A stretch of DNA of 32,000 bases from positions 5,100,001 to 5,132,000 of the forward strand of contig OZ245049.1 of NCBI GenBank assembly GCA_965224465.1, read 5' to 3'. Positions 3,305 through 30,429 of the stretch are shown here, one piece after another (the stretch's first letter is position 1; each line of letters begins with the position of its first letter). A program made the position numbers and the translations under genes. A model generated the notes under the pieces. The model was given only the letters and a program-made list of their open reading frames with translations. It did no database searches and had not been told where the DNA came from. This DNA comes from Flavobacteriaceae bacterium. Its GTDB lineage: Bacteria; Bacteroidota; Bacteroidia; Flavobacteriales; Flavobacteriaceae.

Positions 3305-3678
3305 TATAATACGCTGTAAAGTAATATTGCCCAACCAGCTATCAAACACAAACCTCCAATAGGTGTAATAGGTCCCAGTATTTTTAGTTTTTTACCTTTC
3401 ATATCACTTAAAACCAATCCGTAGATACTAAAAGAGAACAAGAGTACTCCAATGGTGGTTATTGTTGAGATTAGACGAATATTTTCTCCAATGATGGTTC
3501 CGTTAAACCCAATAATCAATAAAAATAAGGCATGATAAAATTGATATTTTACACCCGTTTCAAAGCTTTGTAAGGCTTGGGAAGTTAGTTTTGATTTTAA
3601 GTAATGTGCACCAAATGCGCCAAAAACAACAGCGAGTAAGCCGAAACTAACAGCTATAATTAAAGTAAATTTATCCAT
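3304..3678 (-). CDS. DUF423 family small membrane protein
   Basis: MDKFTLIIAVSFGLLAVVFGAFGAHYLK... with four hydrophobic helices and the GAFGAH motif typical of DUF423/YgdD-like proteins. The start is set at internal Met74 (3678), because the longer track ORF would overlap the divergent S9 peptidase start. Confidence 0.75.
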   Translation of the reverse strand: MDKFTLIIAVSFGLLAVVFGAFGAHYLKSKLTSQALQSFETGVKYQFYHALFLLIIGFNGTIIGENIRLISTITTIGVLLFSFSIYGLVLSDMKGKKLKILGPITPIGGLCLIAGWAILLYSVL

Positions 3679-8295: not shown

Positions 8296-8458
8296 GCCTA
8301 CATTAGTTATTGTTTGTTAAACTCAACACTATTAGTTTAAAAAGGATGAGTCGTAATTGTAAAAGCAAGCCAGCTTAGATTGGATCCTTGATCAGTTAGT
8401 TAGTCCTAAACCTGTTTATAAGGAGTTTACATAAAACCGAATTAATGTAGGCTTTTTT
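8296..8458 (+). ncRNA. Candidate 6S-like (6S-Flavo type) structured RNA
   Basis: A 10-bp closing stem (gcctacatta at 8296-8305 with taatgtaggc at 8443-8452) is followed by T7. Internal pairings are taaactc/gagttta and aaggat/atcctt, around unpaired central segments. It is non-coding and sits directly downstream of zapA. Confidence 0.5.
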
Positions 8459-11055: not shown

Positions 11056-11167
11056 GGTTCTAAAGTACTAAAATAGAATTATTAGCCGCGTGTTTTATAG
11101 GAATCATTACAAATAGTTTGTAGTTCAGGAATAAACATTCTTTTTTTTAATCCCGCTAGTGGGTTTA

Positions 11168-11326
11168 ATCCCAAATATATTTTCAATTGACGGTTTAGAA
11201 ATGGAATTGTTTTTTGTTTTAGCTAGGCGAAAAATGGATGGATAGCCATAGCTATCGTTCTGTTTTTTAACAACGCCAGCACGTAAAATAAATTATTTAT
11301 ATCGGTTATTTTGGATTGTAGTTGGT
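11168..11326 (+). repeat. MITE-like repeat, copy A (its right end abuts the IS21 left terminus)
   Basis: Aligns by eye with copies B, C and D. It ends ...tatatcggttattttggattgtagttggt, directly followed by the IS21 end tgtatatgttaacc. Confidence 0.7.
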
Positions 11327-11416
11327 GTGTATATGTTAACCGAAAACCATACCACCTATTAACCGAAAAGTATACCACTTAACCATATCAATATAAGTTT
11401 CTTATATTGATTAAAT

Positions 11417-12961
11417 ATGATTAGCATGTATACAAAACAAGAAATAATACTTCAATATTATCGTGAAGGTAAAAGTCAGCGATTTATTTCCAAAGATTTA
11501 AGAATTAGCAGAACTACGGTCAAAAAATACATTGATCAATACGTTGCTTCCGAAAACAAGGAAAACACACAGGTAGACACTACTAAGTTGTCTGCTCCAA
11601 TGTACCATGTAGGAATGCGTCCTAAAATTTGTTTAACACCTGAAATACAATCTGCTATTGATTTACTTTTAGAAAAAAACAAAGAAAACAAATCACAAGG
11701 TCTACGGAAACAGTTATTAAAAAAGATAGATATTTATCAGCGTCTTAAACAGCAGGGTTTTTCTATTGGATACACTACTGTTTGCAACTACATTAGGGAG
11801 AAAACAAAGGGACTAAGTAAAAAAGAAGCCTTTATTCGTCAGTCGTACACTCCAGGAGGTAGTTGTGAATTTGACTGGGGAGAACTTAAACTCCATATAG
11901 GGAACGAGTTGGTAAGGCTTCAATTGGCAGTATTTACAGCAACTTACAGTAATTATCGCTATGCGGTACTTTATCATCGCCAAGACACCTTAGCATTTAT
12001 GGAGTCTCATATTGACTTTCACAGTCATGTAGAGGGTGTTTATCAAGAAATGATTTATGATAATATGCGTGTAGCTGTAGCTAAATTTATCGGAAGAACG
12101 GAAAAAGAACCTACACAAGCATTGTTAGATTTAAAGGGGCATTATAATTTTAGACATCGTTTTTGCAACGTTCGTAAAGGAAATGAAAAAGGACATGTGG
12201 AGAGAAGTGTCGAATACATAAGGCGAAAAGCTTTTAGTTTTGATACTAAATTTGATTCCATAGAGTCTGCACAGTCTCATTTATTAGAAACATTAAACAC
12301 CTTAAATAACACGAAACAACAGCTTACGGAAAAAACAGCGATGGAGCTTTTCTCTTTAGAGAAGCCTTTTTTACACAAACAACCGTATCCACTTAAGTGC
12401 TGTTATACAAAGGAATATCGAGTAGATAAATACGCTACGATTGGTTTTTTACAAAATCGATATTCAGTACCCGACAGCTTAGTAGGAGAATTTGTTTCTG
12501 TAAAAATATACAGTTTAAAATTAGAAATATACCATGTAAACAAACATGTAGCTGATCATCTTCGTAGTTATGAAGTGCATAAATGGCTTGTTAATATTGA
12601 GCATTATCTCGATACTTTTAAGCGAAAACCAGGAGCACTCCGTGACAGTGTTGCTTTATTAAATAGTAACTATTTAAAAGAAATATTTGTGCAATTTTTC
12701 ACAGAAAAACCAAAAGAATTTATTGAGTTACTTATCTTTTGCAAGAAATATCAAATAGATAATGAGCATTTAGAAACCACTGTAGAGCGCCTATCTAAAG
12801 GCAGCTCAGGAGCTCTTACTTTGGAAAAAATAAAAGCATTACTAGGGAATAAAACCGAAGATGAAAAAGTGATCGCGTTTACAAAAAACCAAACCTACAA
12901 TTTTGCAAAAAGTCATTTATATGAACTAACCAGTTTAATGAATCAAAACCTATCATCATGA
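11417..12961 (+). CDS. istA: IS21 family transposase IstA
   Basis: N-terminal HTH (GKSQRFISKDLRISRTTVKKYI), DDE-type core, 514 aa. The stop overlaps the istB start (ATGA at 12958-12961). Confidence 0.9.
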   Translation: MISMYTKQEIILQYYREGKSQRFISKDLRISRTTVKKYIDQYVASENKENTQVDTTKLSAPMYHVGMRPKICLTPEIQSAIDLLLEKNKENKSQGLRKQLLKKIDIYQRLKQQGFSIGYTTVCNYIREKTKGLSKKEAFIRQSYTPGGSCEFDWGELKLHIGNELVRLQLAVFTATYSNYRYAVLYHRQDTLAFMESHIDFHSHVEGVYQEMIYDNMRVAVAKFIGRTEKEPTQALLDLKGHYNFRHRFCNVRKGNEKGHVERSVEYIRRKAFSFDTKFDSIESAQSHLLETLNTLNNTKQQLTEKTAMELFSLEKPFLHKQPYPLKCCYTKEYRVDKYATIGFLQNRYSVPDSLVGEFVSVKIYSLKLEIYHVNKHVADHLRSYEVHKWLVNIEHYLDTFKRKPGALRDSVALLNSNYLKEIFVQFFTEKPKEFIELLIFCKKYQIDNEHLETTVERLSKGSSGALTLEKIKALLGNKTEDEKVIAFTKNQTYNFAKSHLYELTSLMNQNLSS

Positions 12962-13734
12962 TAACGACAAGCAACACACATATACAAATAGCACAATACA
13001 GTAAAAATCTTCGTTTACCAATATTTGGAAGAGACTTTGAACAACTCGCCATTGAGTCTACTGAAACAGGAGCTTCTTATGAAGATTTTTTACTACAATT
13101 AATGGAAAGAGAATATGAAAGAAGGTTAGAAAACAGGAAAAAAAGCCAGATACGACAGGCTGGTTTTCCTTCAAAAATGTATTTAGATGAGTTGAATTTA
13201 GAACAACTTCCCATAGATGCAAAAGACAAACTTCCTATATTAGAACGCCTCGATTTTATAAAATCAGGTCAAAACATAATACTAGCAGGGAATCCAGGAA
13301 CAGGAAAAACACACATAGCAACAGGACTTGGATTAAAAGCTTGTATGCAAGGATATAAGGTGCTTTTTATAACAGTACACCGTTTGTTAACCTTACTGAG
13401 AGAGTCACACTCAAACAGAACATTAAGGCAAGTAGAGCTCCGTTTTGAAAAGTACGATTTGGTGATATGTGACGAATTTGGCTACGTTTCTTTTGACAGA
13501 AGTGGCGCAGAACTACTCTTTAATCACCTTTCATTAAGAACAGGTCGAAAATCAACGATTATAACCACTAACTTAGGCTTTGATCATTGGGAAGAAATAT
13601 TTGGTGACCCTATATTAACTGCCGCTTTAGTAGATCGTCTCACACACAAGGCTCATTTAATAAATATGAATGGAGCCTCTTATCGCCTAAAAGAAACCAA
13701 AGAAATGAATGCCCTAAAAACAAACGAAAAATGA
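12958..13734 (+). CDS. istB: IS21 helper ATPase IstB (AAA+)
   Basis: Walker A GNPGTGKTH and Walker B LVICDEFGY, 258 aa, translationally coupled to istA. Confidence 0.9.
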   Translation: MITTSNTHIQIAQYSKNLRLPIFGRDFEQLAIESTETGASYEDFLLQLMEREYERRLENRKKSQIRQAGFPSKMYLDELNLEQLPIDAKDKLPILERLDFIKSGQNIILAGNPGTGKTHIATGLGLKACMQGYKVLFITVHRLLTLLRESHSNRTLRQVELRFEKYDLVICDEFGYVSFDRSGAELLFNHLSLRTGRKSTIITTNLGFDHWEEIFGDPILTAALVDRLTHKAHLINMNGASYRLKETKEMNALKTNEK

Positions 13735-13944: not shown

Positions 13945-15630
13945 TTATTGATCGAGGTTTAAATTTTGTGGAAATAGCTCATTTAGCTTTCGAGCATTGT
14001 AATCAGGGATTATATCCAGTACTTTTTTCATCCATTTATAGGGGTTTACTTGGTGTTTTTTACAAGTCCCAAAAAAGGAGTAGAACATGGCAGCATTTTT
14101 TGCAGCATCATGGCTACCTGCAAATAAATAATTTTTACGTCCAATAGCTAATGTTCTGATAGATCCTTCTACCAGGTTATTATCTAGTTCTAAAGTACCG
14201 TCATACAGGTAGGCTTTTAAGTAGTCCCATCGTTTTAATGTATAAGTGATTGCTTTTCCTAAGGAACTTTTAGGTAAGCTTCCTTGGGTGTTATGGATCA
14301 ACCATTTTATAAATGTATCCATTATTGGTTGTGCTTTATCTAGGCGATAAGCATGCCGTTGCTCAGGAGTAAATTCCTGTTTTTTACAATGTCGCTCAAT
14401 GGCATATAATTGTTGAATGAGTACCATCGCATGACTCGCTTTTACTTTGTCATAGTCTAGTGCTTTCTCAAAATAACGACGTGCATGTGCCATTCACCCT
14501 ACTAAAGTGACATCTTTTTTATGTGCAAATTCATCATATACAGCGTAGCCATCTGTTTGTAAATACCCTTTAAAGTTTTTAAGCATTTCTCTAGGTCCAT
14601 GTTTAGATCTAGAGGGACGATAATCAAACAATACCATTTTTTGTATGGGTGAATAGTACACCCAATGATATCCAGTATGAGTTTTTCCTTTTTTCTGTTT
14701 GTCTAGCACTGGAATAGTTGATTCATCGGCCTGTACATATCCTTGTGACAGCACCGTGTTTTTCATAGCCTGATACAGCGGCTTAAGTAAGTGTCCTAAG
14801 CTGTTTTGCCATCCATTTATTGTAGATGAACTTATAGAGATTCCTTCTCGTTTAAAACGTTCTATCTGTCGATAATACGGTAAGTGATCTAAGAATTTAT
14901 CAATCAATAGCTGTGCTAGCAGGCTGTTTGATGCTACAGATTTTTCAATAGCAAAACTTGGTAAATCAGCCATAATAACGGTCTTAATACCTAAAGGGTT
15001 TCCATTGTCAATCAATGTGTCTTGTACTTTCTTTTTTAAGGCGTATTTTGGTCTGACATATCGTTTTATGTATAGCTTTGTGGGTACAAGTTCTAATTTA
15101 TCTGTAATTTCTTCACCTATTTTTATTCGGTTCTCTATAGTCTCTTTAGGCTCTAAATTAATAATTTCAACAGGTAAATGACTGGGGAGATTTAAACTTC
15201 CAATCGTTCTTTTTTTAGCCTTTTTACGTTGATATGTAATGTTTACAGGAGCTTCTTCTTCCTGGGGCATCTCTTTTAAAACTTCGAAAGGGAGTTGCAT
15301 TTGAAAAGGGTTATTAGCCATTATAAAACGCTCACGTTTTGTCCCAAAAATCATACGACGTAATTGCTCTAATTGAAATTGTCCATATCCGTATTTTGTC
15401 TCTAATTCTTTATATTGAGCTTCTAGGATAGCCTTTTGTAAAGTAACGTCTTTTGTCTTTATAGTAAGTAACTCATTCTTTGCGCTAAGAGAACTTGTCT
15501 TTGTATTAAGTAACTCATTCTTTGAGCTAAGAGAATTTGTCTTTTTGATAAGTAAATCTGACTTAGAATTAGCCTCCTGTAATAGGGCTATAAGTGCTTT
15601 TTTTGATAGCTGTTCTAAGTCTTTTTCCAT
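13945..15630 (-). pseudogene. IS66 family transposase (TnpC) interrupted by one in-frame TGA
   Basis: Track ORFs 14494-15630 and 13945-14493 are contiguous in the same frame. The junction reads ...DVTLVG-TGA-MAHARRYFEKAL, so the stop sits where IS66 transposases carry the Cys of the C(W/M)AHARR motif. Confidence 0.8.
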
Positions 15631-15698
15631 ACATTAAATATACGAAAAATATACATGAACAGCCTGGTTTTATTAGGTTTTTTACCTGTAAAAAGACA

Positions 15699-16040
15699 TT
15701 AATAACGTTTCCTTTGTTGGATGTTTTTGATAGACAGTCCATCAAGAAGCATCACCATTTGGCTGTATTTCATTTGTATACTTCCTTTCAGATTATCATA
15801 CACCGGAAGTTCAAAAGTACCTCGTTCCAATCGTTTATAATACAGTACAAATCCACCTGCTTGCCAATGCAATAGTTTTATTTTGTTTCGAGGTTTATTT
15901 ATGAAGATAAAAACAGCTCCATTACTAGGATCCTCTTCTAAATTATTACGGATAACACCTGACAAACCATTAAATCCTTTACGCATATCTGTGGGTTCTA
16001 GGTGCAGATGAAAATCAAGTTCACTTGAAAGATTTAGCAT
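15699..16040 (-). CDS. tnpB: IS66 Orf2-like accessory protein TnpB
   Basis: 113 aa with TDMRKGFNGLSGVI and LLHWQAGGFVLYYKRLERG, hallmark strings of IS66 Orf2. It lies 1 nt downstream of tnpA. Confidence 0.85.
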   Translation of the reverse strand: MLNLSSELDFHLHLEPTDMRKGFNGLSGVIRNNLEEDPSNGAVFIFINKPRNKIKLLHWQAGGFVLYYKRLERGTFELPVYDNLKGSIQMKYSQMVMLLDGLSIKNIQQRKRY

Positions 16041-16041
16041 A

Positions 16042-16350
16042 TTACAAATGAATTAAATTTTGTAAATCGACAAGTGTAATCTCTTTGTTAATGACCAAAT
16101 TTACACCTGTTGGATACTCGATTTTAAAACTATCTAAAATAGAATTTCTGCTGTTTTCAATAGGAGCATCAATAAGTTCAACCTTTGAAAATCCACTGGC
16201 ATTTTTGGAGGTCAATTTCTTATTCCAGTACCTAAATTTACAAAGTGTAATTTTATGACTTTTACAATAATCTTCCAAGGTTAAATCACTCAACTTCCAA
16301 TCGGAAACAACAGCTGCCATATAGGCTCGTTTTTCTTCGTTTTTTCTCAT
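16042..16350 (-). CDS. tnpA: IS66 accessory protein TnpA (HTH)
   Basis: 102-aa first ORF of the IS66 three-gene set, in the expected position and size. Confidence 0.7.
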   Translation of the reverse strand: MRKNEEKRAYMAAVVSDWKLSDLTLEDYCKSHKITLCKFRYWNKKLTSKNASGFSKVELIDAPIENSRNSILDSFKIEYPTGVNLVINKEITLVDLQNLIHL

Positions 16351-16407: not shown

Positions 16408-17201
16408 CATTACTCACACTACCATTTGATTGTTTTTTGTGAAAAATTTAATCAGTGAGTCGTTGTAGTTCAGTATTTCAATAATATCACAGGATCTTAT
16501 AATCAAACAAAAATATGTAACCACTGGAGTGGTGAGGGCGAGGTCTTCCTGTTATTTAGTTGGAGTCATCTACTTGATTGGACGTACACCTTATTTATAA
16601 TTAGATTTTGTTAGATATTTTCCGTTAATATATGTAACAACATCCTTTTTGTTTTTAATAAATTCAATATTATTAGTATCGATTATCTCTTCACTATTTA
16701 TTCTAATTGTAAGCGAATTTTTTTTGAGTGAAAACGAAAACTTTATAGGGTTTTTAAGATTGTTCTTTATTTTTAAATCTTTAAAACCATAGACAACAGT
16801 AGCGTCAGAACCTAATGGCGTAAACCTTGTTTCATTTGTATATATGTCTGTTGAATGATTATATCTTTCTATAATATCAAGATTTGCATATAAACTCGCA
16901 TAATATATAATTCCTGATAATTGGCATAAACCACCACCATAAGTTGGTGTTATTTTTCCATTCACTATTGACCGACTTTCTACAAATCCATTTTTTTTCG
17001 AAGGAGCACCAACTACTTTCCAAAATGAAAATATTTCATTTGGATTTAGTTGATTTTTTTCGATTTTATTAATAGCAATTTTAAAATTTTCAAGTTTTGC
17101 AGTTGATGATGCAGTTTGTTTTATTTTTTGAACAATTTCTATATTTCCAATATAATTGATTTGTTTGTCCGTGGTTTTAGCATATTTAAAAGTATTACCA
17201 T
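16408..17201 (+). repeat. 794-bp direct repeat, copy 1 (duplicate of 24397-25190)
   Basis: Collinear, near-identical by eye to 24397-25190, with scattered substitutions and single-base differences in A/T runs. It starts exactly at the IS66 target duplication and ends at ...aaaagtattaccat. Confidence 0.9.
16591..17201 (-). pseudogene. 5'-truncated VanW-like gene copy
   Basis: The track ORF 16591-16965 is identical over 124 aa to the C-terminus of 24580-25266. Homology continues in frame to 17201, but the first ~25 codons and the start codon are replaced by unrelated sequence. Confidence 0.8.
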
Positions 17202-17293
17202 TTGGGTCACCGATTATTTTGAAAGGGAATTATGAATTTGATTGGAGTGAACCAACTGAAGATATTTACTTTACAAAGATAGAAATTTAACTT

Positions 17294-17731
17294 ATGGATG
17301 AACTAATAAAGCAAGCCTTAAATGAATACTTTGCAGATTTTAAAAAGTATCATTTAATTATTCTCATTTGTTTCGTTATAATAATTGGTCTTATCCAACT
17401 TTTCCAATCAATATGGGTTTCGAATAAAATTGAAAGGTTTAAAACTGACTTGAAAAAGTCTGAAATTAAATTCTCAAGATATAATGAACTTCAAATAAAC
17501 TCATTGAGAGAGATTTATCATAAACTTGTTGCTTTTCAACTTGCAAACAACCTAATTTTTAAGTCTAAACCTAAAAGTGTTGGACATTCTAAATATAAAA
17601 ACAGAATTAACGAGTGGATTAAAAGTTATATTGAATGTGCAAACGAATTTGCTCGTGAAAAAATACTGTTAACAGACAAATTAAAATCATTATTTACAAG
17701 AACTCTCACTAGCATCCGAAAGTTTTCATAA
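17294..17731 (+). CDS. Hypothetical single-pass membrane protein
   Basis: 145 aa with one hydrophobic helix (HLIILICFVIIIGLIQLFQSIWV) followed by a helical K/E-rich region. No family recognised. It ends a few nt before the presumed IS4 end. Confidence 0.45.
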   Translation: MDELIKQALNEYFADFKKYHLIILICFVIIIGLIQLFQSIWVSNKIERFKTDLKKSEIKFSRYNELQINSLREIYHKLVAFQLANNLIFKSKPKSVGHSKYKNRINEWIKSYIECANEFAREKILLTDKLKSLFTRTLTSIRKFS

Positions 17732-17734
17732 ATT

Positions 17735-19170
17735 GTAATTTTTCACTCTGTAAGCCAATGAAACTAAGAGGTCCCTCTATTTTAGATGGAAAATAAGTCA
17801 GGCTGAAGCTTTAAATTACCTTGAGGATTTTCTCTTATTCTCTTAGCTCCTTCGCCTACTTGGTTACAGACGTAGTCTAGTGTGAGATAAAATGTGAGGC
17901 AAATTCTTATTTTTTCTACAAAATTAGAAAAAGCATGTTTTTTATTGGCTACTGTTCTTACTATTAATTGAAGTAGTAGATAATTGATTAGGGCAATATA
18001 AATTTGTGACTTTACTGCATTTTCATTTGTTCCTACAAATGTTTTAATTTGTAAATTTTGTTTAATTGCCTTAAAAAACAACTCTATATCCCAACGTTTT
18101 TTATACAGGTCTGCAATTGTTCTTGCTTTCCAATCTAATTGATTTGTGATGATTTCTATAACCTTATTTTCGTCAGGTTTGTAGACATGTACTAACCGTA
18201 ATTCTACTTGATTAATTCCTGTTTTTATAGCTTTCGGACTTGTTAATATAATGATTTCGTCTTTCAAAATATCTTGATCTACTTCTTCTGGAAGGCCTAA
18301 TTCTCGTACCGTTTTAAAGACTGTATTTGTCTTTATCCTAGTGACAAAAACGTTTTCGGCTATTACACGCTGCATCATTAAATCAAAATCAAAATACGCT
18401 CTATCCTCAACGAAAATAGTGTTTTTAACGAAAATCAACTGCTTTAATCCATACCTGTCATGAAGTTTTGCAGGAGTAATATTAACAACATCTGGTATCA
18501 TCATGGTGTCATCCCAACAAGTGTGTATTTTAATACCTCCTTTAGCTGTCCGAAACTTTGCCCAATCAAACATCGACAGACATAGACTGATTACTGAGCT
18601 ATCGATCAGTTTAATATTACGGTCTCTAATTTCTTCAATAATATGAGATTTATGGCGCTTTGAAAGTATATGTTTGTAATGTGTTAAAAGCCTACTGTAT
18701 AAAGTCTCAAAGACTTTATAGCTACGTTTTTTATTACCATCACTCATCGTTGAACGGGCAGGGCTTTGAACCAGGCCTAATTTGGCTATAAATCCTTCGG
18801 ACACTCCAATACCAGTAGAAATATCACTTAAAGTAAGGCATTTATTCAGCTGTCCGAAAGTTAAGGCGACAAACTGGTCATAAGTCTTGTACTTACTGCA
18901 GCCTTTGTCACTTTTATGTTCTGCGGTACAACGATTCAACATCCAACGAGGTACTAAATCTATTATTTGGCGGATTAAAGGAGTATTTGTATTTTTGATT
19001 CGCTTGAAGAGTCCCATAAAATTATTTTTATTTTTACTTAACAAAAATAAGGGATTCTCAGGCTTTTTAAAAATCAGACTTTCGGATAGTTGTGTAATTT
19101 TATGTTTTAAAATTGAAACTATAAGGTAGTGATTTTTACTTTTATGTAGAATATGAGTGTAAAAGCTACC
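17735..19170 (-). mobile_element. IS4-family insertion sequence (boundaries approximate)
   Basis: A single DDE transposase gene flanked by weak inverted repeats: taatttttcactc near 17736, against the reverse complement of gagtgtaaaagcta near 19155. No target duplication identified. Confidence 0.45.
17782..19017 (-). CDS. IS4 family DDE transposase (DUF4372-type N-terminus)
   Basis: MGLFKRI...IIDLVPRW...FDQFVALTFGQL N-terminal region. DDE core strings LIDSSVISL, VEDRAYFDFD and YKKRWDIELFFKAIKQNL (Y-2-R-3-E-6-K signature). ATG at 19017 preferred over the TTG at 19044. Confidence 0.85.
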   Translation of the reverse strand: MGLFKRIKNTNTPLIRQIIDLVPRWMLNRCTAEHKSDKGCSKYKTYDQFVALTFGQLNKCLTLSDISTGIGVSEGFIAKLGLVQSPARSTMSDGNKKRSYKVFETLYSRLLTHYKHILSKRHKSHIIEEIRDRNIKLIDSSVISLCLSMFDWAKFRTAKGGIKIHTCWDDTMMIPDVVNITPAKLHDRYGLKQLIFVKNTIFVEDRAYFDFDLMMQRVIAENVFVTRIKTNTVFKTVRELGLPEEVDQDILKDEIIILTSPKAIKTGINQVELRLVHVYKPDENKVIEIITNQLDWKARTIADLYKKRWDIELFFKAIKQNLQIKTFVGTNENAVKSQIYIALINYLLLQLIVRTVANKKHAFSNFVEKIRICLTFYLTLDYVCNQVGEGAKRIRENPQGNLKLQPDLFSI

Positions 19171-19369
19171 TTTAGGTTTGGTTCAACACCATGTATAATT
19201 AATTACTTGGTCACTGCCGACTTACTAACATTTCTGCGGAATATTTTATATGTGATTTAGTTGCTAAATTAGATGCTTAACTACGCAACAAACCATACAC
19301 ATAAACGTTCTAAGCAATTGCTCACTCAAACGGAAAAGTATAGCGTAATCTAAAAAAAGAAAAAGAATT

Positions 19370-19948
19370 ATGGCAGGAAAACCAATAGCAACGTTAGGCA
19401 GTATGTGTACTTGCGTTGGGTCACAAGATATGATTGCACAACGGAATCCAACTGTATTAATCAATGGAAAAGCTATAGCTTGTGTTGGAGATTTGACTGC
19501 TAATGGAGGTGTGATTGTTTCTGGTTTTTCAAATATTATTATTGGTAGTAAAACGCCTGAACCTCCTACAGTAATACAACCTATCAAAAAAACACCTTTT
19601 CCTAAAATTACTTTTACAAACAGAGTTTTGGGTAATGCTAAAAAAGCTATAGCTAATCAAAAAGCTTTACGTAATGAATCTGAAAAAACAGACGGAGAAC
19701 CCAAAATATATAACTATCAATGGCGTAAAGTAGAAACGGTGATACGTAACCGTAAAGTTTTAAAAATTGTTACTTTAACTGCTGATGTACTAAATATTCT
19801 TGACGGACAAACCGCTACCATCAAAGTAATGAATCCGTCAGACAATGAAAATGAAGAAGAAAAAATAATAGAATTGACAAGAACTGTTCAATACAAAAAA
19901 GTAACTGTAGAATGGGTGTTAGAAGAATCACAACAAGAAAATAAATAG
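19370..19948 (+). CDS. PAAR-like domain protein (contractile-injection spike tip) with a ~125-aa C-terminal extension
   Basis: The N-terminal 60 aa, MAGKPIATLGSMCTCVG...VLINGKAIACVGDLTANGGVIVSGFSNIIIGS, reproduce the G-x-P-A-A-R/G-D and V-x-I-N-G repeats of PAAR proteins. A Pro-rich linker (TPEPPTVIQPIKKTPFP) and a beta-rich extension follow. Confidence 0.6.
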   Translation: MAGKPIATLGSMCTCVGSQDMIAQRNPTVLINGKAIACVGDLTANGGVIVSGFSNIIIGSKTPEPPTVIQPIKKTPFPKITFTNRVLGNAKKAIANQKALRNESEKTDGEPKIYNYQWRKVETVIRNRKVLKIVTLTADVLNILDGQTATIKVMNPSDNENEEEKIIELTRTVQYKKVTVEWVLEESQQENK

Positions 19949-19985
19949 CATTAAAAACAACACAAACCACTAAAAGTAGATTGCT

Positions 19986-22457
19986 TTGAAAGAAAACCTA
20001 ACCTTAGAAGAAAATCAGAAAAAAGAATTTAAACAAGTAATTGCACAGTACACGTTTAGTGTAGAAGTTGATGGTGTTACTAGCAACGAAAGATCAATTC
20101 TAAACGTAGAAAAAAAAGGAATAGCATTACATTTTTTGCGTTACGGATTATTTGATATCGTAAGTGATTATTCAGCGCCTACTACAAGTTACACTTCTCC
20201 TGATAGTGCGGAATTTTATAGGTCTATCTTTGTAGACGAACAAGAAAAAGCTACCATAGCTAAGGTAAGAAACGAACCAGCTAATAAATCCAATCAGCAG
20301 CAAGCTATTATAGAACCTTCTATCCTTTTAGAAGAAGTCATCATAAATCATAGCATACCCGATAACGAAAACTTCAATACCGCAAGAACACCATTACGAG
20401 CAGGATATGTGTATATGATTAATGATGCAACTCCTCTTGATGATTTTAAAGAGTTTAGGGTAGATGATTATGGGATGATTTATGAAATTGATTGGAGTAA
20501 AAACAAAAAAGACGGAAAATACTTAGACCAGCGCAAAGCTAATGGCAAAAGTATGATGTACAAAATTCTCGACAGAGACGACCAAACCTATTGTTTTGCA
20601 TACTCTCCTGTGCAATGGAGCGCTGCTTATGTAAACGAACTACTAACAAACCAACAAAAAAGAGACGAACGTTGTAAAACCAAAGTGCTTTGCAAAGGAA
20701 TATCTAAAAACGAAGGATCAAACGATATTGAGGTAACCCATTATAAACAAACACATATTGTAGTAGAGGGCAACAACCCCATGGCATATAAATACAACAA
20801 AATCTTAGATAGAATTGCTAGCGAGGAACAAAAAGAAGACGAAGAAGGAGGAAACACGCTTTTAGAAAATATGTTTATCACCTTAGACGACCCAATGGGA
20901 TGTGCAGATATAATGTGCGTAGGTATCGATACAGAAATTAATCGATTAAAAGCTCTTATGATTAGCCTTCAAACAGGTCAAAGTGCTGAAGAAGTTTTTC
21001 CTTATTTACAGAAAAAGGAACAAGTACCTATTAAAGACTCAGAAAAAAGCAAACAAATACAATACTTACATCGTTTAGCTCAACTAACCTATGACTTTGT
21101 ATATAATAATCGTGAAAATGCAGAGAAATATGAATCTGACCTTATAGAATCTACCACTGCTAACATTGCATTAGATTTAACAGTTGGTGGCTTATTAAGA
21201 CCTTTTATTGAGCAAAACGGTGTTAAAAAAAGCAAGTTAGAAAAACTATTAGGCGTACAAGAAAGAGCAGACCAACGTTGTGTTATAAATAGTTACAGAG
21301 ACGACTTGGGTAATTTAATGAAATCTGAGTATTACCAAAATGCTACAGACGATTATATAAACAGTATAGCTGATAGTATTGAGGATGCCAAAGGTATTAT
21401 GGCAGAACACCTTATCGCATTAGGCCAATACCCCAATATGCACGATAAACATTTAGATTTAAAAACCGTATATCAACCCAAACAAGACACTTGGTACAAA
21501 CCTATTAATAACACCTTGTACAACGAAAACCCCGAACTGTTTATAAAATCTACAAAACTATTAGATTACAAAATAGATTTTCAAGATATTATTACCTTGA
21601 GTCTTGCCGGGAAAACAGTAAGCAATATGCGTAAAATTTTAAAAGCCTACGCCAACCATTCTGATTTTAAAGGAGGCTATGCCACACTTGCGCTACACCG
21701 TAAAGTATCTTATTTTAGAAACAAAAACACTAAAGTAGCGACCTTTAAATTTAGAGCTTTAGAAAATTTTGATCAATATCTTTTAGAAAATAAAAAACAA
21801 TTACGTTTAGAATTAGACGGTAAGGGCATTTCCTTAAAAAAGTTTAAAAAATATTGGCATATTGAGTATGAAAAAATGACAGCCAAAGCCGCACAACAAT
21901 TTATTGATGAAGGTAAGGTAACCCTAAACATGCAAAATAGTCCTAAGCGTTTTGAACAAGAAATAAAAAAGTTTTACCAATCGGGGGCTTTGGCTAGTGT
22001 GTTATTAGTTATAGAAGGCGTGTTTTGGGCAGAAGCTGTTCATAAATTTAATAAAGATAAAAATGTATCAAATTTTTTAGTATTAAGTGGAGCAAGTATA
22101 AAGCTAGGGGCTGCCATTACCCGATTGGCAGAAGAAACCAAAACCTATGAAAAGTTATTTGCAAAAGAAACAGCTAAAGAGTTTAAAAAATATGGTAAAG
22201 TCTTAGGTATTGCCAGTTCTGCTATTAGTGTATACAGCTTAGGTAATTCGGCATTAACCAGTTTTTCATACCGTGATACCGATGCAGCACTAGCCTATGG
22301 CGTAGCAACAGGTTTAAGTGGCGTGTTTTTGGCTGTCGATGTCTCGGCACTTATTGCTTCTTTTGGGGGAGCGAGTTTTTTAGTACTTGGTTTTTGGCCT
22401 GCTGCGTTAGTAGGTGGGCTATTGTGGTTACACTGTATCTTATTAATAAATATTTAA
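19986..22457 (+). CDS. Putative membrane-targeting toxin/effector: VasX-N-like N-terminal region plus a C-terminal hydrophobic helix bundle
   Basis: Strings LHFLRYGL, LRAGYVYMI, EFRVDDYGMIYEIDW, FAYSPVQWS and LDDPMGCADIM resemble conserved blocks I recall from the VasX N-terminal / BTH_I2691-type T6SS effector family. The last 157 aa (21984-22454) hold at least four hydrophobic helices. The only available start is a TTG two codons after an in-frame stop. Confidence 0.5.
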   Translation: MKENLTLEENQKKEFKQVIAQYTFSVEVDGVTSNERSILNVEKKGIALHFLRYGLFDIVSDYSAPTTSYTSPDSAEFYRSIFVDEQEKATIAKVRNEPANKSNQQQAIIEPSILLEEVIINHSIPDNENFNTARTPLRAGYVYMINDATPLDDFKEFRVDDYGMIYEIDWSKNKKDGKYLDQRKANGKSMMYKILDRDDQTYCFAYSPVQWSAAYVNELLTNQQKRDERCKTKVLCKGISKNEGSNDIEVTHYKQTHIVVEGNNPMAYKYNKILDRIASEEQKEDEEGGNTLLENMFITLDDPMGCADIMCVGIDTEINRLKALMISLQTGQSAEEVFPYLQKKEQVPIKDSEKSKQIQYLHRLAQLTYDFVYNNRENAEKYESDLIESTTANIALDLTVGGLLRPFIEQNGVKKSKLEKLLGVQERADQRCVINSYRDDLGNLMKSEYYQNATDDYINSIADSIEDAKGIMAEHLIALGQYPNMHDKHLDLKTVYQPKQDTWYKPINNTLYNENPELFIKSTKLLDYKIDFQDIITLSLAGKTVSNMRKILKAYANHSDFKGGYATLALHRKVSYFRNKNTKVATFKFRALENFDQYLLENKKQLRLELDGKGISLKKFKKYWHIEYEKMTAKAAQQFIDEGKVTLNMQNSPKRFEQEIKKFYQSGALASVLLVIEGVFWAEAVHKFNKDKNVSNFLVLSGASIKLGAAITRLAEETKTYEKLFAKETAKEFKKYGKVLGIASSAISVYSLGNSALTSFSYRDTDAALAYGVATGLSGVFLAVDVSALIASFGGASFLVLGFWPAALVGGLLWLHCILLINI

Positions 22458-23326
22458 AAGATACGGAGTTACAATCCTATTTTAAAAACTTTCCGTTAAG
22501 TGACTATACCTTGCAACCCAATACTGGAGAGCTACCTTATCAATATGCAAATCGTTTATTAACAAACATAGAAGATAGCATAAGTGGTTCAGGTAAATAT
22601 CAAGGATTTAAAGATTTAGAAGTTGCCTTTGTAGAACTTACCGATATGCTTACACCTAACTATACCCAAGTAGAAGTGCTATTGCCCGAAAGTCAATTAA
22701 AACGAGCTAGTAATAAAACCTATCACACCTCGTTGCATTATGCAGAAACATATAATATCTATGCACATCGTTTTAAAGTACATTTATATACCGCATGCCC
22801 ATGTGCTGATATAGATGATTTAGATATTAAAGCTTGGTTTTACCCTAATGGCATACAACCTAATGCTAAACGAACAGAAATCACCACCTTTATATACCAT
22901 TTCCCAAAACCTGACCCTTACAGTTTTAATCAAAAACAAGTACCTAGCTGTAGTATCGATTTTGCGATACCCAACGATGCTAAGTATTATTACGAACCCG
23001 CTCAATTTGGTTATGAGTTTATACATGCAGAAGTACTCTTTTTAATTCGAGTAATCAATAATGCAGCAACTTGTGAATACACCCCACAAACCTTACATAA
23101 TAAAGATAGGTACACGCATGTATATATGTCAGTAAAACAAACCTATACAGGACAAACAGCAGCAATACAAAACTTGTATAATCCACAAACGCATTATGCA
23201 TCTCCAATGAACACAAAAAGCATTAAACCCAAACAACTAACACAAGAGCAGGCGTTGCATAAACGTACTATTTTTGATATAGACCAAGTAAACCATTTAC
23301 AATCATACAAATTAGAAAATGAGTAA
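22394..23326 (+). CDS. Unknown ~300-aa ORF, probably the frameshifted C-terminal part of the preceding effector
   Basis: It overlaps the upstream ORF by 64 nt in the -1 frame, and no independent start lies outside the overlap until about 22511. The sequence is protein-like, rich in Y/H/C/P. No family recognised. Confidence 0.5.
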   Translation: MACCVSRWAIVVTLYLINKYLKDTELQSYFKNFPLSDYTLQPNTGELPYQYANRLLTNIEDSISGSGKYQGFKDLEVAFVELTDMLTPNYTQVEVLLPESQLKRASNKTYHTSLHYAETYNIYAHRFKVHLYTACPCADIDDLDIKAWFYPNGIQPNAKRTEITTFIYHFPKPDPYSFNQKQVPSCSIDFAIPNDAKYYYEPAQFGYEFIHAEVLFLIRVINNAATCEYTPQTLHNKDRYTHVYMSVKQTYTGQTAAIQNLYNPQTHYASPMNTKSIKPKQLTQEQALHKRTIFDIDQVNHLQSYKLENE

Positions 23327-24041
23327 ACAAAGAAAAAGCTATCATCAACCCTTTACGATATTAACTACTCCTACTTTAGTGAATAATGAAGATGTATACC
23401 CTAATAAGGGTATATTGATTTTAGAAGCGAATGATGGATTTTATAAAGTTGAAGGTAAAACAACACTTAAAGTAAGCAGAAACTTAGGCGCTATAGCTGT
23501 TGCTTTTGGGGTATATGGATCTCAACTGGGGGGGGGGGAGTTATACCAATATGTTTTTATTTATTGTGTTATTGCAATAGGTCTTTTCTTTTTTATCTAT
23601 GGCTTAACCGCTAAAAAAGAAAAAAAGATGTTTGTGTTAGATAGGCTCAATGGCATGGTAACCTACCCCGATTTGTTTTATTTACCTCAATTAAAAGGGA
23701 AATTTACAGATTTAAAAGCAGTAATCTCGGTGAGTGGTGATATAGATGGTGGTGCAGGTAGAGAATATTTGAAATTTGTAAATACCTTTAAACCCCGTAA
23801 ATTAGATGTACTAAGAACCATTACTTATGACGACCCTTATGAAGAATGGAGTTTGTATGTATGGTATATGGATAAAAACAGACCTTTACCTCCTGGTACC
23901 GCTTTTGACCCTTATCGAAAGAAAGATTTTGAACGTAGAAAAAAAGAAGGATTTCCTAAACCTTTATTTGAAAGTCACATTGCTACTCCCGAGGCTACCA
24001 AAGAACAACAAGCTAGACGTAGGCTAATTGGTGGATGGTAA
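23319..24041 (+). CDS. Two-TM membrane protein, candidate immunity protein
   Basis: An 8-nt overlap with the upstream ORF (ATGAGTAA). Hydrophobic helices LGAIAVAFGVYGSQLGGG and YVFIYCVIAIGLFFFIYGLTA. Last gene of the operon, after a putative membrane toxin. Confidence 0.5.
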   Translation: MSKQRKSYHQPFTILTTPTLVNNEDVYPNKGILILEANDGFYKVEGKTTLKVSRNLGAIAVAFGVYGSQLGGGELYQYVFIYCVIAIGLFFFIYGLTAKKEKKMFVLDRLNGMVTYPDLFYLPQLKGKFTDLKAVISVSGDIDGGAGREYLKFVNTFKPRKLDVLRTITYDDPYEEWSLYVWYMDKNRPLPPGTAFDPYRKKDFERRKKEGFPKPLFESHIATPEATKEQQARRRLIGGW

Positions 24042-24276
24042 TAAAAACTACCTCTAATAACTAAGTGTACGTGCGGTGCGTAGCGCCCAGCATGAACATC
24101 CTGTTGACTATACCAGCTAAAAAGATGATGCTATGGGGATTGCGTGTTTTAATTAAGAGGCTATCGACAAAGACCTTAATAGATAACTGCCTGTTTTAGG
24201 TCATTTGCTCTCAAGCTCTTTTAGGGGATTTTTGTTTTGTGCGGTTGGATATTTTTCAGGTTGCATCTAACACCCA

Positions 24277-24524
24277 TATATCCATAATAACACCCTAAAG
24301 TTGAAGGTGTATCCGTTATACCTAAACATACAGCGATGTGTTTATCTATTTAATTATGCATTGTACAGTGCCCTTCAAATATATATATATAAGCCTATTA
24401 CTCACACTACCATTTGATTGATTTTTGTGAAATATTTAATCAGTGAGTCGCTGTAGTTCAGTATTTCAATAATATCACAGGATCTTATAATCAAACAAAA
24501 AAAATGTAACCACGGGAATGGTGA
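24277..24524 (+). repeat. Intergenic repeat family 2 ('module 1'), copy a
   Basis: Shares ccctaaagttgaagg.(a/g)tatccgtta, gtgtgtttatctatttaatt, gcattgtacag.g..cttcaaatata, cacactaccatttgattg and aaaaatgtaac with 27171-27427 and 29806-30010. Its 3' part is also present at 16408-16535. Confidence 0.7.
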
Positions 24525-25190
24525 GGGCGAGGTCTTCCTGTTATTTAGTTGGAGTCATCTACTTGATTGGACGTACATCTTATTTATAATTAGATTTTGT
24601 TAGATATTTTCCGTTAATATATGTAACAACATCCTTTTTGTTTTTAATAAATTCAATATTATTAGTATCGATTATCTCTTCACTATTTATTCTAATTGTA
24701 AGCGAATTTCTTTTGAGTGAAAACGAAAATTTTATGGGGTTTTTAAGATTGTTCTTTATTTTTAAATCTTTAAAACCATAGACAACAGTAGCGTCAGAAC
24801 CTAATGGCGTAAACCTTGTTTCATTTGTATATATGTCTGTTGAATGATTATATCTTTCTATAATATCAAGATTTGCATATAAACTCGCATAATATATAAT
24901 CCCTGATAATTGGCATAAACCACCTCCATAAGTTGGTGTTATTTTTCCATTCACTATTGACCGACTTTCTACAAATCCATTTTTTTTCGAAGGAGCACCA
25001 ACTACTTTCCAAAATGAAAATATTTCATTTGGGTTTAGTTGAATTTTTTCAATTTTATTAATAGCAATTTTAAAATTTTCAAGTTTTGCAGTTGATGATG
25101 CAGTTTGTTTTATTTTTTGAACAATTTCTATATTTCCAATATAATTGATTTGTTTGTCCGAGGTTTTAGCATATTTAAAAGTATTACCAT
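24397..25190 (+). repeat. 794-bp direct repeat, copy 2 (duplicate of 16408-17201)
   Basis: See copy 1. Here ATTACTCA (24397-24404) is uninterrupted, which shows the empty IS66 target site. Confidence 0.9.
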
Positions 25191-25266
25191 CAAAAAAATC
25201 TTCAATTTTATTTTTCAAGATATTTAGACGAACTTTTAGATAATAGGGGACTATTTTCTTTATCAT
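24580..25266 (-). CDS. VanW family protein (intact copy)
   Basis: FSFWKVVG...GGGLCQLSGIIYYASLYANLDIIERYNHS...GSDATVVYGFKDLKIKN matches the VanW domain core (GGG-x-CQ, ER-x-x-HS, DATV). Confidence 0.8.
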   Translation of the reverse strand: MIKKIVPYYLKVRLNILKNKIEDFFDGNTFKYAKTSDKQINYIGNIEIVQKIKQTASSTAKLENFKIAINKIEKIQLNPNEIFSFWKVVGAPSKKNGFVESRSIVNGKITPTYGGGLCQLSGIIYYASLYANLDIIERYNHSTDIYTNETRFTPLGSDATVVYGFKDLKIKNNLKNPIKFSFSLKRNSLTIRINSEEIIDTNNIEFIKNKKDVVTYINGKYLTKSNYK

Positions 25267-25937: not shown

Positions 25938-26220
25938 TTTCGGTTATGCCTAACAGTCTATGTATGATAGGTGCGTATAAAAAAACAAAAACTTTTGGAA
26001 TTACCAAGATTCGTTTTTTTAATCCCACCAGTGGGTTTTATTTTCCGATGCTTACATCGAAATGATTAAGTTTTTTTTCTTTTTTATGCCTCGCGTGCTT
26101 GGCCCGAGATTATTGAATTTTCCTTTCTTTACGTTTTTTATACAAGATTTAAAAAAAGGAGGTTTATTGAGTAATAAATGGTTATTATGATCAAACAGTG
26201 CCGCCTATATAAAGGGAGTA

Positions 26221-26379
26221 ATACCAAATACATTTCCAAGTGTCGGTTTATAAATGTAATTATTTTTTGTTTTAGGTAGGTAAAAAATAATAATGATGCT
26301 TAGCTATCGTTCTATTTTTTAATAACTATAGAACGTAAATTAAACTATTTATATCGGTCATTTTGGATTGTAGTTGGTA
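26221..26379 (+). repeat. MITE-like repeat, copy B
   Basis: Starts ataccaaatacatttcc and ends ttttggattgtagttggta. Collinear with copies A, C and D. Confidence 0.7.
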
Positions 26380-27170: not shown

Positions 27171-27427
27171 ATTATTCACAATAACAGCCTAAAGTTGAAG
27201 GGATATCCGTTACGTCAATAATACAGTGGTGTGTTTATCTATTTAATTCTCAATTTAATTATGCATTGTACAGCGCGCTTCAAATATACAAAACAAGTCT
27301 ATTTCGCACACTACCATTTGATTGTTTTTTTTCGTGAAAGTTTTAAACAGTAAATATCTGTTTTTCAGAGTGTTAATATTGTAGGGCAATCTCGTAATCA
27401 AATAAAAAATGTAACATGGGAGTGGTT
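27171..27427 (+). repeat. Intergenic repeat family 2 ('module 1'), copy b, fused to MITE copy C
   Basis: Collinear with 24277-24524, and runs directly into the MITE start at 27428. Confidence 0.7.
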
Positions 27428-27588
27428 ATACCAAATACATTTCCAAATAACGGTTTAGAAATAAAATTATTTTTTGTTTTAGCTAGGTTGAAAATGGATG
27501 TATAGCCACAGCTATAGTTCTGATTTTTAACAACGCTAGAACGTAAATTAAACTGTTTATATCGGTCATTTTGGATTGTAGTTGGTAT
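27428..27588 (+). repeat. MITE-like repeat, copy C (best-preserved terminal inverted repeats)
   Basis: The left end ataccaaatacatttccaaataacgg aligns with the reverse complement of the right end, ataccaactacaatccaaaatgaccg: 20 of 26 positions match by hand alignment. Confidence 0.7.
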
Positions 27589-27603
27589 AACCGTTATGCC
27601 TAT

Positions 27604-27710
27604 TATTGAAGTATTATTTCTTGTTTTGTACACATGCTAATCATATTTAATCAATATAAGTAACTTATATTGATATGGTTAAGTGGTATACTTTTCGGTT
27701 AACATATACA
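27604..27710 (-). mobile_element. Solo IS21 left-end fragment (terminus plus the first ~45 nt of istA), inverted relative to the complete copy
   Basis: Its reverse complement reads tgtatatgttaaccgaaaagtataccacttaaccatatcaatataagt.acttatattgattaaatatgattagcatgtgtacaaaacaagaaataatacttcaata, which matches 11328-11460 minus one 24-nt terminal direct repeat. Confidence 0.8.
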
Positions 27711-29805: not shown

Positions 29806-30010
29806 CTATAATATCCACAATAAATATCCCTAAAGTTAAAGGTATATCCGTAATACATCGGTGTGTTTATCTATATTACTTTGTACAGCGTTCTTCAAAT
29901 ATACGAAACAAGCCTATTGCGCATACTTCCTTTTTATTGTTTTTCGTAAAAGTACAAATAGTTAAACGCTGTTTTTCAAAGACTCAATAATATCACATAA
30001 TCTTATAACC
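29806..30010 (+). repeat. Intergenic repeat family 2 ('module 1'), copy c (more diverged)
   Basis: ccctaaagttaaaggtatatccgtaata, ggtgtgtttatctat, ttgtacagcgttcttcaaatatac and caataatatcaca.aatcttataa are collinear with copies a and b. Confidence 0.6.
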
Positions 30011-30054: not shown

Positions 30055-30161
30055 GTATCAAAAAACAGAACGATAGTTAAGTCTATCCACCCCTTTTTTC
30101 GCCTAGCTAAAATAAAAATTATGTCCATTTCTAAGCCGTCACTTCTAAATGTATTTAGTAT
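30055..30161 (-). repeat. MITE-like repeat, copy E (partial, reverse orientation)
   Basis: Its reverse complement reads atactaaatacatttagaagtgacggcttagaaatgg...ttagctaggcgaaaaa...ctatcgttctgttttt, which matches the left two-thirds of copies A-C. Confidence 0.6.
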
Positions 30162-30429
30162 TAGATTCGTACAAGGATATCAGTACGCTGCTTTATAGAG
30201 GGAATGTGAGGTTTTTAAAGCTGCTTTATCTAAAATAGTTGCAAGGCAGCTGTACAAACATCAAAGAATTTAAAATAAAAGCATAAAAAGTATTGAATGC
30301 ATTCATTGATTTATAGCGAGTATTGCACAAAAGAGTCCTTTAATAGGAATAGGATCCTTTATTTCACCCATCATCTTACATTTTTAACAAAAAAACACAC
30401 CTAATGCCACGATAATCAAAACAGTTTAT

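Follow-up and report, generated by a model that had tools for sequence, protein, structure and literature searches.

A 32,000-nucleotide (nt) stretch of contig OZ245049.1 from a Flavobacteriaceae bacterium (GenBank assembly GCA_965224465.1, positions 5,100,001 to 5,132,000; this whole stretch is called the window in what follows) contains a compact cassette that encodes a PAAR spike-tip protein, a predicted pore-forming toxin and a putative immunity protein. The cassette is a type VI secretion system (T6SS) effector–immunity module. It probably represents a stand-alone triad of spike tip, effector and immunity protein of the Bacteroidota T6SS, in which delivery of the toxin has been lost or is being lost while the immunity gene persists; judging from the pattern of lesions in the cassette, loss of the weapon with retention of immunity is the most likely interpretation. 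An initial annotation of the same DNA had proposed a contractile-injection effector–immunity cassette, and this is borne out by profile matches to PAAR and VasX_N, by the Tke5 fold predicted for an intact orthologue of the toxin, and by synteny with VgrG and TssD in relatives.

Four open reading frames (ORFs) of 192, 823, 310 and 240 amino acids (aa) follow one another on the same strand, with a 37-nt gap, a 64-nt overlap and an 8-nt overlap between them, exactly as first described. They correspond to three genes only: the toxin gene is split in two, into ORF2 and ORF3. In a 1114-aa relative (protein P0002), residues 1-822 pair with ORF2 at 66% identity, and residues 813-1114 pair with residues 9-310 of ORF3 at 63% identity. 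ORF3, previously taken for a separate unrecognised protein, is therefore the C-terminus of the toxin, split off by a frameshift; its frame is -1 with respect to that of ORF2, and the 64-nt overlap betrays the 1-nt frameshift. Intact relatives of the toxin are typically ~1080–1120 aa long, and no uninterrupted frame of ~1000-1200 aa exists here.

The family of the toxin is clear from its N-terminal part. ORF2 matches the Pfam family VasX_N (PF20249) with an E-value of 4.2e-13 (50.1 bits, against a cut-off of 27), in agreement with the VasX/BTH_I2691-type sequence blocks seen at the outset, and the segments LRAGYVYMI and FAYSPVQWS, which belong to the MIX motifs, are readable in the translation (the MIX consensus reportedly goes back to Salomon et al. 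2014). A second match, to NCBIfam BTH_I2691_fam, is weak (60 bits, against a cut-off of 150) and is confined to residues 631-813. The protein search with ORF2 retrieved 34 relatives besides the product of the window, nearly all of them 1023-1167 aa in length with a VasX_N region, and several, from Tenacibaculum, Aquimarina and Cellulophaga, are named 'toxin VasX' by NCBI. The profile of the toxin family also matches Ptx2 (PDB 9qpv) in the VasX_N region, with E 9.8e-8. One homologue (P0006, 1119 aa, 54% identical) is encoded on a TRINITY contig of a eukaryotic transcriptome in EukProt, and is most likely derived from a bacterial associate or from contamination.

Fold comparisons were made on P0002, an intact orthologue, using an AlphaFold model built from a 30-sequence alignment (mean pLDDT 65, with low confidence in the transmembrane (TM) region). 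The model is beta-rich in residues 1-300, helical in residues 300-890, including hydrophobic helices at 655-823, and beta-rich again in residues 894-1109. In a Foldseek search it matched Tke5 (PDB 9r8g_A) over the whole length, with E 1.2e-12 and probability 1.00, and this was the sole significant fold match in the PDB. The hydropathy of the toxin in the window agrees with the model, and the bundle of hydrophobic helices that had been noticed at the end of ORF2 is indeed there, at residues ~662-825. In the architecture published for the VasX family, Bte2 included, a MIX domain at the N-terminus is followed by a helical region in which TM segments are buried, and an Ig-like domain closes the protein (PMC12718326); since P0002 has the same order of folds, ORF3 is this closing Ig-like domain. 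Depolarisation of membranes through pores has been described for Tke5, Ptx2, VasX and Bte2 (PMC12718326, PMC13133200), and Tke5 in particular is known to form ion-selective depolarising pores and to be neutralised by Tki5, an inner-membrane protein (PMC13133200). We assign ORF2 plus ORF3 to the VasX/BTH_I2691/Bte2/Tke5 family of pore-forming toxins, the pore activity being predicted by homology. The idea that they might define a new effector family has to be abandoned, as the VasX/Bte2 family is already described in Bacteroidota, with solved structures (PMC12718326, PMC13133200).

ORF1, in which PAAR-like repeats had been discerned, matches Pfam PAAR_motif (PF05488) with E 5.8e-12 and 46.1 bits, well above the cut-off of 27. 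The match spans only positions 21-70 of the 70 positions of the profile; full-length homologues match positions 2-69 at 73 bits. Residues 3-185 of ORF1 also align, with E 2.6e-29, to residues 39-219 of the 222-aa chain J of PDB entry 8GRA, the record of which is titled 'Type VI secretion system spike protein Paar'. This chain is the Bacteroides fragilis PAAR dedicated to Bte2 (PMC13402684), and in view of the alignment the extension at the C-terminus of ORF1 is a known component of PAAR proteins of the Bte2 type.

The context of such genes was surveyed in 24 related loci, collected by a profile-guided scan with one genome per species, the source genome not among them; they come from Tenacibaculum, Aquimarina, Hyunsoonleella, other Flavobacteriaceae, Marinilabiliaceae, Saprospiraceae and Fulvivirga. 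A homologue of ORF1 lies directly 5' of the toxin gene in 20 of these loci. VgrG (Phage_base_V plus Phage_GPD) is found upstream of the PAAR gene in half of them (12/24), adjacent in 11 cases and separated by one small ORF in the other. The order VgrG–PAAR–toxin–immunity is seen in 12 loci, seven of which also have TssD/Hcp (PF17642, E 1.2e-41). With the PAAR, toxin and immunity genes directly behind VgrG, and in some loci also behind TssD/Hcp, such loci have the usual organisation of T6SS spike and effector islands. The recurrent flanking gene clusters that were profiled, which are only some of them, represent VgrG, TssD, a TonB-dependent receptor and further PAAR-fused toxins; no sheath, tube or baseplate gene of an extracellular contractile injection system (eCIS) was found among the clusters recurring across the 24 flanks, singleton flank genes being left unprofiled.

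In the window itself ORF1 has no VgrG next to it. Pfam searches with all ORFs of at least 100 aa, together with tblastn for VgrG/TssD, detected no VgrG, Hcp, sheath, tube or baseplate gene there, which agrees with the initial annotation, and tblastn found no remnants of VgrG or Hcp upstream of ORF1. This 'orphan' state is normal for the subfamily and is no defect in itself, because other members also stand alone. The closest relatives of the PAAR protein, in loci L027-L029, form stand-alone PAAR–toxin triads beside housekeeping genes, with an intact PAAR of 231-234 aa and no adjacent VgrG; the toxin is complete in L027 and L029 (1077-1078 aa) and runs off the contig end in L028, and L027 also shows immunity genes. 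Likewise, the closest orthologues of the toxin, in loci L001 and L003-L005, are encoded with immunity genes and have neither PAAR nor VgrG adjacent to them.

Some relatives have the same extended PAAR fused to further C-terminal domains (537-1059 aa in total; one with a Het-C domain; Table 1). In L012, L013 and L015 a small membrane protein follows the PAAR fusion, so that this spike has another effector, encoded 5' of the VasX-type toxin. In L026 (14306-22624, uncultured Aquimarina sp.) separate ORFs that match the toxin in its C-terminal domain alone (residues 868-1109 and 928-1109) are interleaved with genes of the ORF4 family after the main pair. These C-terminal fragments with immunity genes resemble the displaced toxin-tip/immunity cassettes of Rhs and contact-dependent inhibition (CDI) systems, and the arrangement hints at cassette-style diversification of the toxin family.

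The start of ORF4 overlaps the stop codon of the toxin by 8 nt, the same overlap as in L001. An AlphaFold model of ORF4 (pLDDT 90.9, pTM 0.86) consists of a TM hairpin (helices 47-69 and 75-97) followed by a beta/alpha domain, and hydropathy peaks at residues 70-101; the earlier description of the last ORF as a small two-TM protein in the immunity position is upheld by this hairpin and by the conserved place of the gene downstream of the toxin. The charge distribution would put both termini in the cytoplasm. A homologue of ORF4, or an array of homologues, is located directly 3' of the toxin gene in 21 of the 24 loci, that is, in every locus with sufficient downstream sequence, and tandem arrays are frequent, reaching six copies in L004 and ten ORFs of the family in L026. 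Among 20 toxin–immunity pairs, identity of the immunity protein co-varies with that of the helical, TM and C-terminal regions of the toxin (r 0.76-0.84) and, less closely, with that of its N-terminal 300 residues (r 0.55); in partial correlations over these pairs no single toxin region stands out. A role of ORF4 in immunity agrees with where its gene lies, with its conservation and tandem amplification, and with its place in the membrane, and we treat it as a putative immunity protein, intact and with two TM helices.

The ORF4 family is large. An exhaustive HMMER search with ORF4 yielded 370 representative clusters (50% identity) at E<=1e-3, and the family has the near-invariant C-terminal motif W-x-x-x-V-W-Y-M-D-K-N-R-P-L-P-P-G…F-D-P-Y-R…D-F-E-R-R-K. 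ORF4 has no sequence match in Pfam, NCBIfam or PDB (ORF3 likewise has none in Pfam or NCBIfam); 50 members of its family gave no meaningful Pfam match, and the family profile found nothing in PDB. A fold search against PDB gave no match at E <= 0.001, and the best one, EROS (8kei_D, E 0.017), is too weak to use. We tentatively suggest that this could be an undescribed family of immunity proteins for VasX-type pore toxins; ORF4 may also be simply a diverged Bti2.

The copy of the module in the window differs from its intact relatives in both the PAAR and the toxin gene. After its first five residues (MAGKP), ORF1 lacks 37 residues that are present in 8GRA_J and in all eight homologues compared (228-242 aa, up to ~80% identical), in which the missing block reads AATVGSNHxCPMCSGTxPHVGGPxxxGxxxVLFNGKP. 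In the DNA alignment with L027, the 5' region and the first five codons of ORF1 are shared, and are followed by a clean in-frame gap of 111 nt (37 codons). The two ends of the gap fall at similar GKP-encoding stretches, which fits a deletion between short direct repeats. Together with the first PAAR repeat, the conserved His/Cys block (H-x-C-P-M-C…P-H) has disappeared, a third of the PAAR domain in all, and a remaining conserved His is now Asn (TAHGG to TANGG). ORF1 is left without a complete three-repeat PAAR domain and its set of VgrG-contacting sheets and, to go by the sequence, without the conserved His/Cys residues near the tip, which reportedly act as metal ligands (Shneider et al. 2013). 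The description of ORF1 as an orphan PAAR was correct with regard to its identity and to the missing VgrG, but the loss of a third of the domain had gone unnoticed.

Truncation of the PAAR gene by the neighbouring insertion sequence (IS) of the IS4 type is rejected, as the native 5' region and the start codon of ORF1 are both still there and what is missing lies inside the gene. Homology with the intact stand-alone triads begins at position 19307, given the ~80% DNA identity to the sequence 5' of the intact PAAR gene of L027. A segment of ~58 nt at this place (19307-19364) also matches L027 13062-13119, upstream of the second immunity gene of that locus, with 81% identity, and may be a shared promoter or regulatory element.

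In the toxin gene, the stop codon TAG at 19977-19979 is followed by ATT, GCT and then TTG, and four intact orthologues start with ATG-MKEN where the window has TTG-MKEN. The TTG start two codons after an in-frame stop, remarked upon earlier as unusual, is there, but it is an ATG-to-TTG change in comparison with these orthologues. Further downstream, a DNA alignment with four intact orthologues shows that one base is missing in the second Gly codon of GGT GG- GCT. The frameshift falls within the last hydrophobic helix, not at a domain boundary, and no slippery heptamer of the X XXY YYZ form could be read in the overlap of ORF2 and ORF3. The proteins of the window come from one contig of 5,241,564 bp, and the same contig encodes an intact paralogue of the toxin (P0005, 1116 aa, 56% identical) and two full-length PAAR paralogues, P0319 (232 aa) and P0325 (242 aa).

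Several observations weigh against the view that the module has lost, or is losing, its function as a weapon. Of the 52 alignment columns in which conservation across the family reaches 90% or more, the toxin of the window keeps 51, so that there is no decay besides the lesions, and for the same reason the mutations in the toxin gene appear to be recent. Five substitutions at conserved positions of ORF1 are within the range of its homologues and represent no excess. The frameshift, a single base in a short run of G, may stem from faulty assembly, and TTG can validly serve as a start codon, albeit a weaker one. Some PAAR-like proteins, those of the DUF4280 type, have no more than two sheets in contact with VgrG (PMC13402684), and the shortened ORF1 might for this reason still cap a spike. 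The 111-nt deletion is also compatible with loading of the toxin through paralogous PAAR proteins.

Under the main rival reading, the triad would be fully functional, with the frameshift an error of sequencing or assembly, TTG in use as the start codon, the short PAAR working, and VgrG supplied from elsewhere in the genome. Besides the nearly complete set of conserved residues and the position of the toxin lesion at one base in a G run, it can point to the intact stand-alone triads of the closest relatives, to the retention of the native 5' region and start of ORF1, and to the paralogues in the same genome, which suggest an active system. We nonetheless consider it unlikely. A deletion of 111 nt is not a base-calling error, and this one takes away a PAAR repeat with its His and Cys residues, in addition to the replacement of a further His by Asn; three independent lesions have accumulated in one small operon, in which the immunity gene is untouched; and the neighbours are truly disrupted too, as seen in the in-frame stop of an IS66 transposase and in a truncated copy of a vanW-like gene (see below).

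It is very improbable that the toxin is split by design, either through a programmed -1 ribosomal frameshift or as a pore module and a C-terminal domain made as separate polypeptides. The -1 frame of ORF3 and its overlap with ORF2 would be expected of the former, and the C-terminal-domain ORFs beside immunity genes in L026 offer a parallel for the latter. Yet no slippery heptamer is read in the overlap; homology places the change of frame exactly at GGT GG|G GCT, where re-pairing after a -1 slip would be poor; the break lies inside a hydrophobic helix; and all 34 other relatives align as single proteins. The toxin is one ORF in each of the 19 related loci whose toxin–immunity pair is complete; L011 also shows a split toxin, in gene calling that accepted ATG only. 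As for the notion, also raised in the initial annotation, that the cassette is cargo of an eCIS or a phage-tail-like particle, or else an effector family unrelated to T6SS, it is scarcely credible: the lack of T6SS genes in the window speaks for it (that none of the best 120 of 277 matches of the VgrG profile come from this contig is uninformative either way), but the relatives have T6SS-type VgrG and TssD as neighbours, the best structural relative of ORF1 is a T6SS PAAR, the toxin combines the MIX/VasX_N marker with the Tke5 fold, and eCIS sheath, tube, baseplate and AAA+ genes are missing from the window and from the recurrent clusters, some of them profiled, in the flanks of the 24 loci.

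For the triad with lost or failing delivery, a mechanism can be proposed by analogy with the characterised systems. In the intact module, the PAAR protein would cap the VgrG spike and, by analogy with the service that the B. fragilis PAAR renders to Bte2, would carry the toxin on its C-terminal extension. The N-terminal MIX/VasX_N region would mark the toxin for delivery by T6SS. Once in the periplasm of a neighbouring cell, the toxin would insert its buried hydrophobic helices into the inner membrane, and these are expected to form small ion-selective pores and to collapse the membrane potential. In sister cells ORF4, as a two-TM inner-membrane protein, would neutralise the toxin, probably by intramembrane binding. 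In the copy studied here, with the first PAAR repeat lost, the toxin started from TTG and frameshifted, and ORF4 intact, the locus would persist as an immunity gene in an IS-rich part of a flavobacterial-type chromosome, and this part appears to have been reshaped by IS21, IS66 and IS4 elements and by a duplication of ~8 kb.

Table 1. Coordinates of the cassette, of its neighbours in the window, and of PAAR-fusion ORFs in related loci
Feature	Position	Strand	Basis or remark
Native 5' region upstream of PAAR gene	19307..19369	+	~80% DNA identity to region upstream of intact L027 PAAR gene
ORF1, PAAR spike-tip protein with C-terminal extension, 192 aa	19370..19948	+	PAAR_motif match; 111-nt deletion after codon 5
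Toxin gene (ORF2 + ORF3), 1113 aa once frame restored	19986..23326	+	Homology to full-length relatives
ORF2, 823 aa, TTG start	19986-22457	+	ORF scan
Toxin start codon TTG	19986..19988	+	Four intact orthologues have ATG at same codon
VasX_N region with MIX motifs (TPLR, LRAGYVYMI, FAYSPVQWS)	20379..20672	+	PF20249, residues 132-229
Predicted hydrophobic (transmembrane) helix cluster of toxin, residues ~662-825	21969..22460	+	Hydropathy scan
ORF3, 310 aa	22394-23326	+	ORF scan
Frameshift site, GGT GG- GCT	22416..22418	+	DNA alignment with four intact orthologues
Toxin C-terminal beta-rich (predicted Ig-like) domain, ORF3	22418..23326	+	Aligns to C-terminus of every full-length homologue
ORF4, putative immunity protein, 240 aa, intact	23319..24041	+	Two-TM hairpin and conserved C-terminal domain
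IS21 element	istA 11417-12961, istB 12958-13734		Left of cassette; Pfam
IS66-type element, large transposase split into ORFs 14494-15630 and 13945-14493	13945-16350	-	
Left direct repeat, truncated and disrupted 3' part of vanW-like gene	16409..17201		124-aa ORF 16591-16965 matches Pfam VanW
IS4-type DDE transposase gene	17782..19044	-	DDE_Tnp_1 E 1.6e-19, and DUF4372
Right direct repeat, within and downstream of intact vanW-like gene (24580-25266, -)	24397..25190		blastn, Pfam
PAAR-fusion ORFs in related loci	L012 7579-9192; L015 7586-9199; L013 7590-9212; L026 7443-9398; L024 17458-20637		

The IS4 element and the 794-bp direct repeats reported around the cassette are both present (Table 1). 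The repeats are identical at 777 of 794 positions (98%) with one gap in the blastn alignment, and consist of the 3' 611 nt of the vanW-like gene plus 183 nt downstream of it. Their geometry would fit a history in which a unit of 7989 bp (17202-25190), with the cassette inside it, was duplicated in tandem and the left copy later eroded next to IS66. The split of the IS66 transposase points to a nonsense mutation and not to an indel, since its second ORF begins, with no change of frame, right behind the stop that ends the first. Between the left repeat and the IS4 element there is a 145-aa ORF without a Pfam match (17294-17731, + strand); a weak inverted repeat (17696-17723 / 19078-19105) suggests that the end of the IS4 element may overlap the 3' end of this ORF. 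The left end of IS21 (11328-11460) has an inverted solo copy of ~110 nt at 27601-27710, 97% identical and 16 kb away, so that IS21-end copies bracket the whole IS-rich stretch, cassette included; a past inversion or deletion mediated by IS21 is suggested by this.

Two families of intergenic repeats are scattered through the window. The first, of ~160 nt, occurs in both orientations with 65-90% identity (3095-3306, 11166-11326, 26219-26379, 27428-27588, 30060-30163), with two of its copies adjoining the IS21 ends, and may be an element resembling miniature inverted-repeat transposable elements (MITE) or repetitive extragenic palindromes (REP), or else an IS target. The second, of ~105-155 nt, has three copies, at 24279-24383 (between ORF4 and the vanW-like gene), 27173-27329 and 29814-29944. 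A 6S-Flavo RNA (Rfam RF01685, 105 bits against a gathering score of 85) is located at 8321-8428 on the + strand, just 5' of the RNase Y gene (8477-9997), and supports a Flavobacteriia-type origin of the window, as does the taxonomy of the relatives. In clustering at 90% identity, RNase Y, transketolase, an ABC-F protein and VanW are singletons. Within the cassette, sigma-70 promoter-like sites are fewer than in shuffled sequences, by a promoter model that is ill-suited to Bacteroidota; terminator-like sites number 7, against 3.1 ± 1.6 in shuffles, and none of them is at a usable gene boundary.

The toxin family, the dedicated PAAR and the membrane-embedded immunity protein have all been published, also for Bacteroidota, and only the ORF4 family is without a description in the Pfam, NCBIfam and PDB searches made here. 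No new question is opened by the cassette, since toxins of this family, the way they are delivered and membrane immunity as a concept are all in print. Its significance is in the extension of the VasX/Bte2/Tke5 pore-toxin family with a dedicated PAAR into marine Flavobacteriia and their relatives, and in a worked example of effector decay with retention of immunity. A general lesson is that 'unknown' ORFs of the ORF3 kind beside VasX_N genes are better read as frameshifted C-terminal domains. The ORF4 family, with its large size, its confident predicted fold and the lack of a Pfam or NCBIfam profile and of a PDB match, could reasonably be given a Pfam entry of its own and be used in structural studies of the neutralisation of VasX-type pores. 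If the family is truly undescribed, the locus would capture a marine flavobacterium in the act of discarding a weapon and keeping the shield.

Among known systems, the nearest is the VgrG–PAAR(Pte2)–Bte2–Bti2 module of the B. fragilis GA3 T6SS (PDB 8GRA; PMC12718326, PMC13402684), which is from the same phylum and has the same order of PAAR, toxin and immunity genes as the flavobacterial loci. ORF1 is a sequence homologue of Pte2, including the C-terminal extension (E 2.6e-29). Like Bte2 as described, the toxin has a MIX region, a TM-bearing helical region and a C-terminal beta domain, and is encoded without an adjacent gene for a DUF4123 adaptor. The differences are that Bte2 belongs to gut Bacteroidales, whereas the lineage studied here is a marine flavobacterial one and the copy in the window is stand-alone and mutated, and that divergence of the toxin sequence has gone far enough for profile searches of PDB to give Ptx2 and Tke5 but no Bte2-like chain. 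Bte2 needs the Rnf complex in its targets, a requirement that is argued to be specific to gut Bacteroidales (PMC12718326, PMC13402684).

The Pseudomonas putida pair Tke5–Tki5, of the BTH_I2691 family (PDB 9r8g; PMC13133200), provides the match of fold over the whole length, and Tki5 is likewise encoded directly downstream of its toxin. Sequence identity to Tke5 is, however, only ~10%, the score with BTH_I2691_fam is below the cut-off (60 vs 150 bits), and Tke5 uses a DUF4123 adaptor (Tap3), in contrast to the dedicated PAAR without adaptor in the loci described here. Vibrio cholerae VasX–TsiV2 and Pseudomonas aeruginosa Ptx2–Pti2 (PDB 9qpv) share the VasX_N/MIX region, to which the profile match with Ptx2 (E 9.8e-8) belongs, and VasX and Ptx2 each have a membrane immunity partner (PMC13133200). 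Both are adaptor-dependent effectors of Proteobacterial T6SS-i, and sequence similarity to them is limited to ~100 N-terminal residues. Finally, the orphan immunity genes and acquired interbacterial defence (AID) islands of gut Bacteroidales (PMC11901371) also contain intact immunity genes without a working toxin, in regions shaped by mobile elements, and the tandem immunity-family arrays in relatives of the cassette are a further likeness. Unlike in AID islands, a single immunity gene is here still attached to its decaying toxin, in place of a recombinase-associated array of many unrelated immunity genes.

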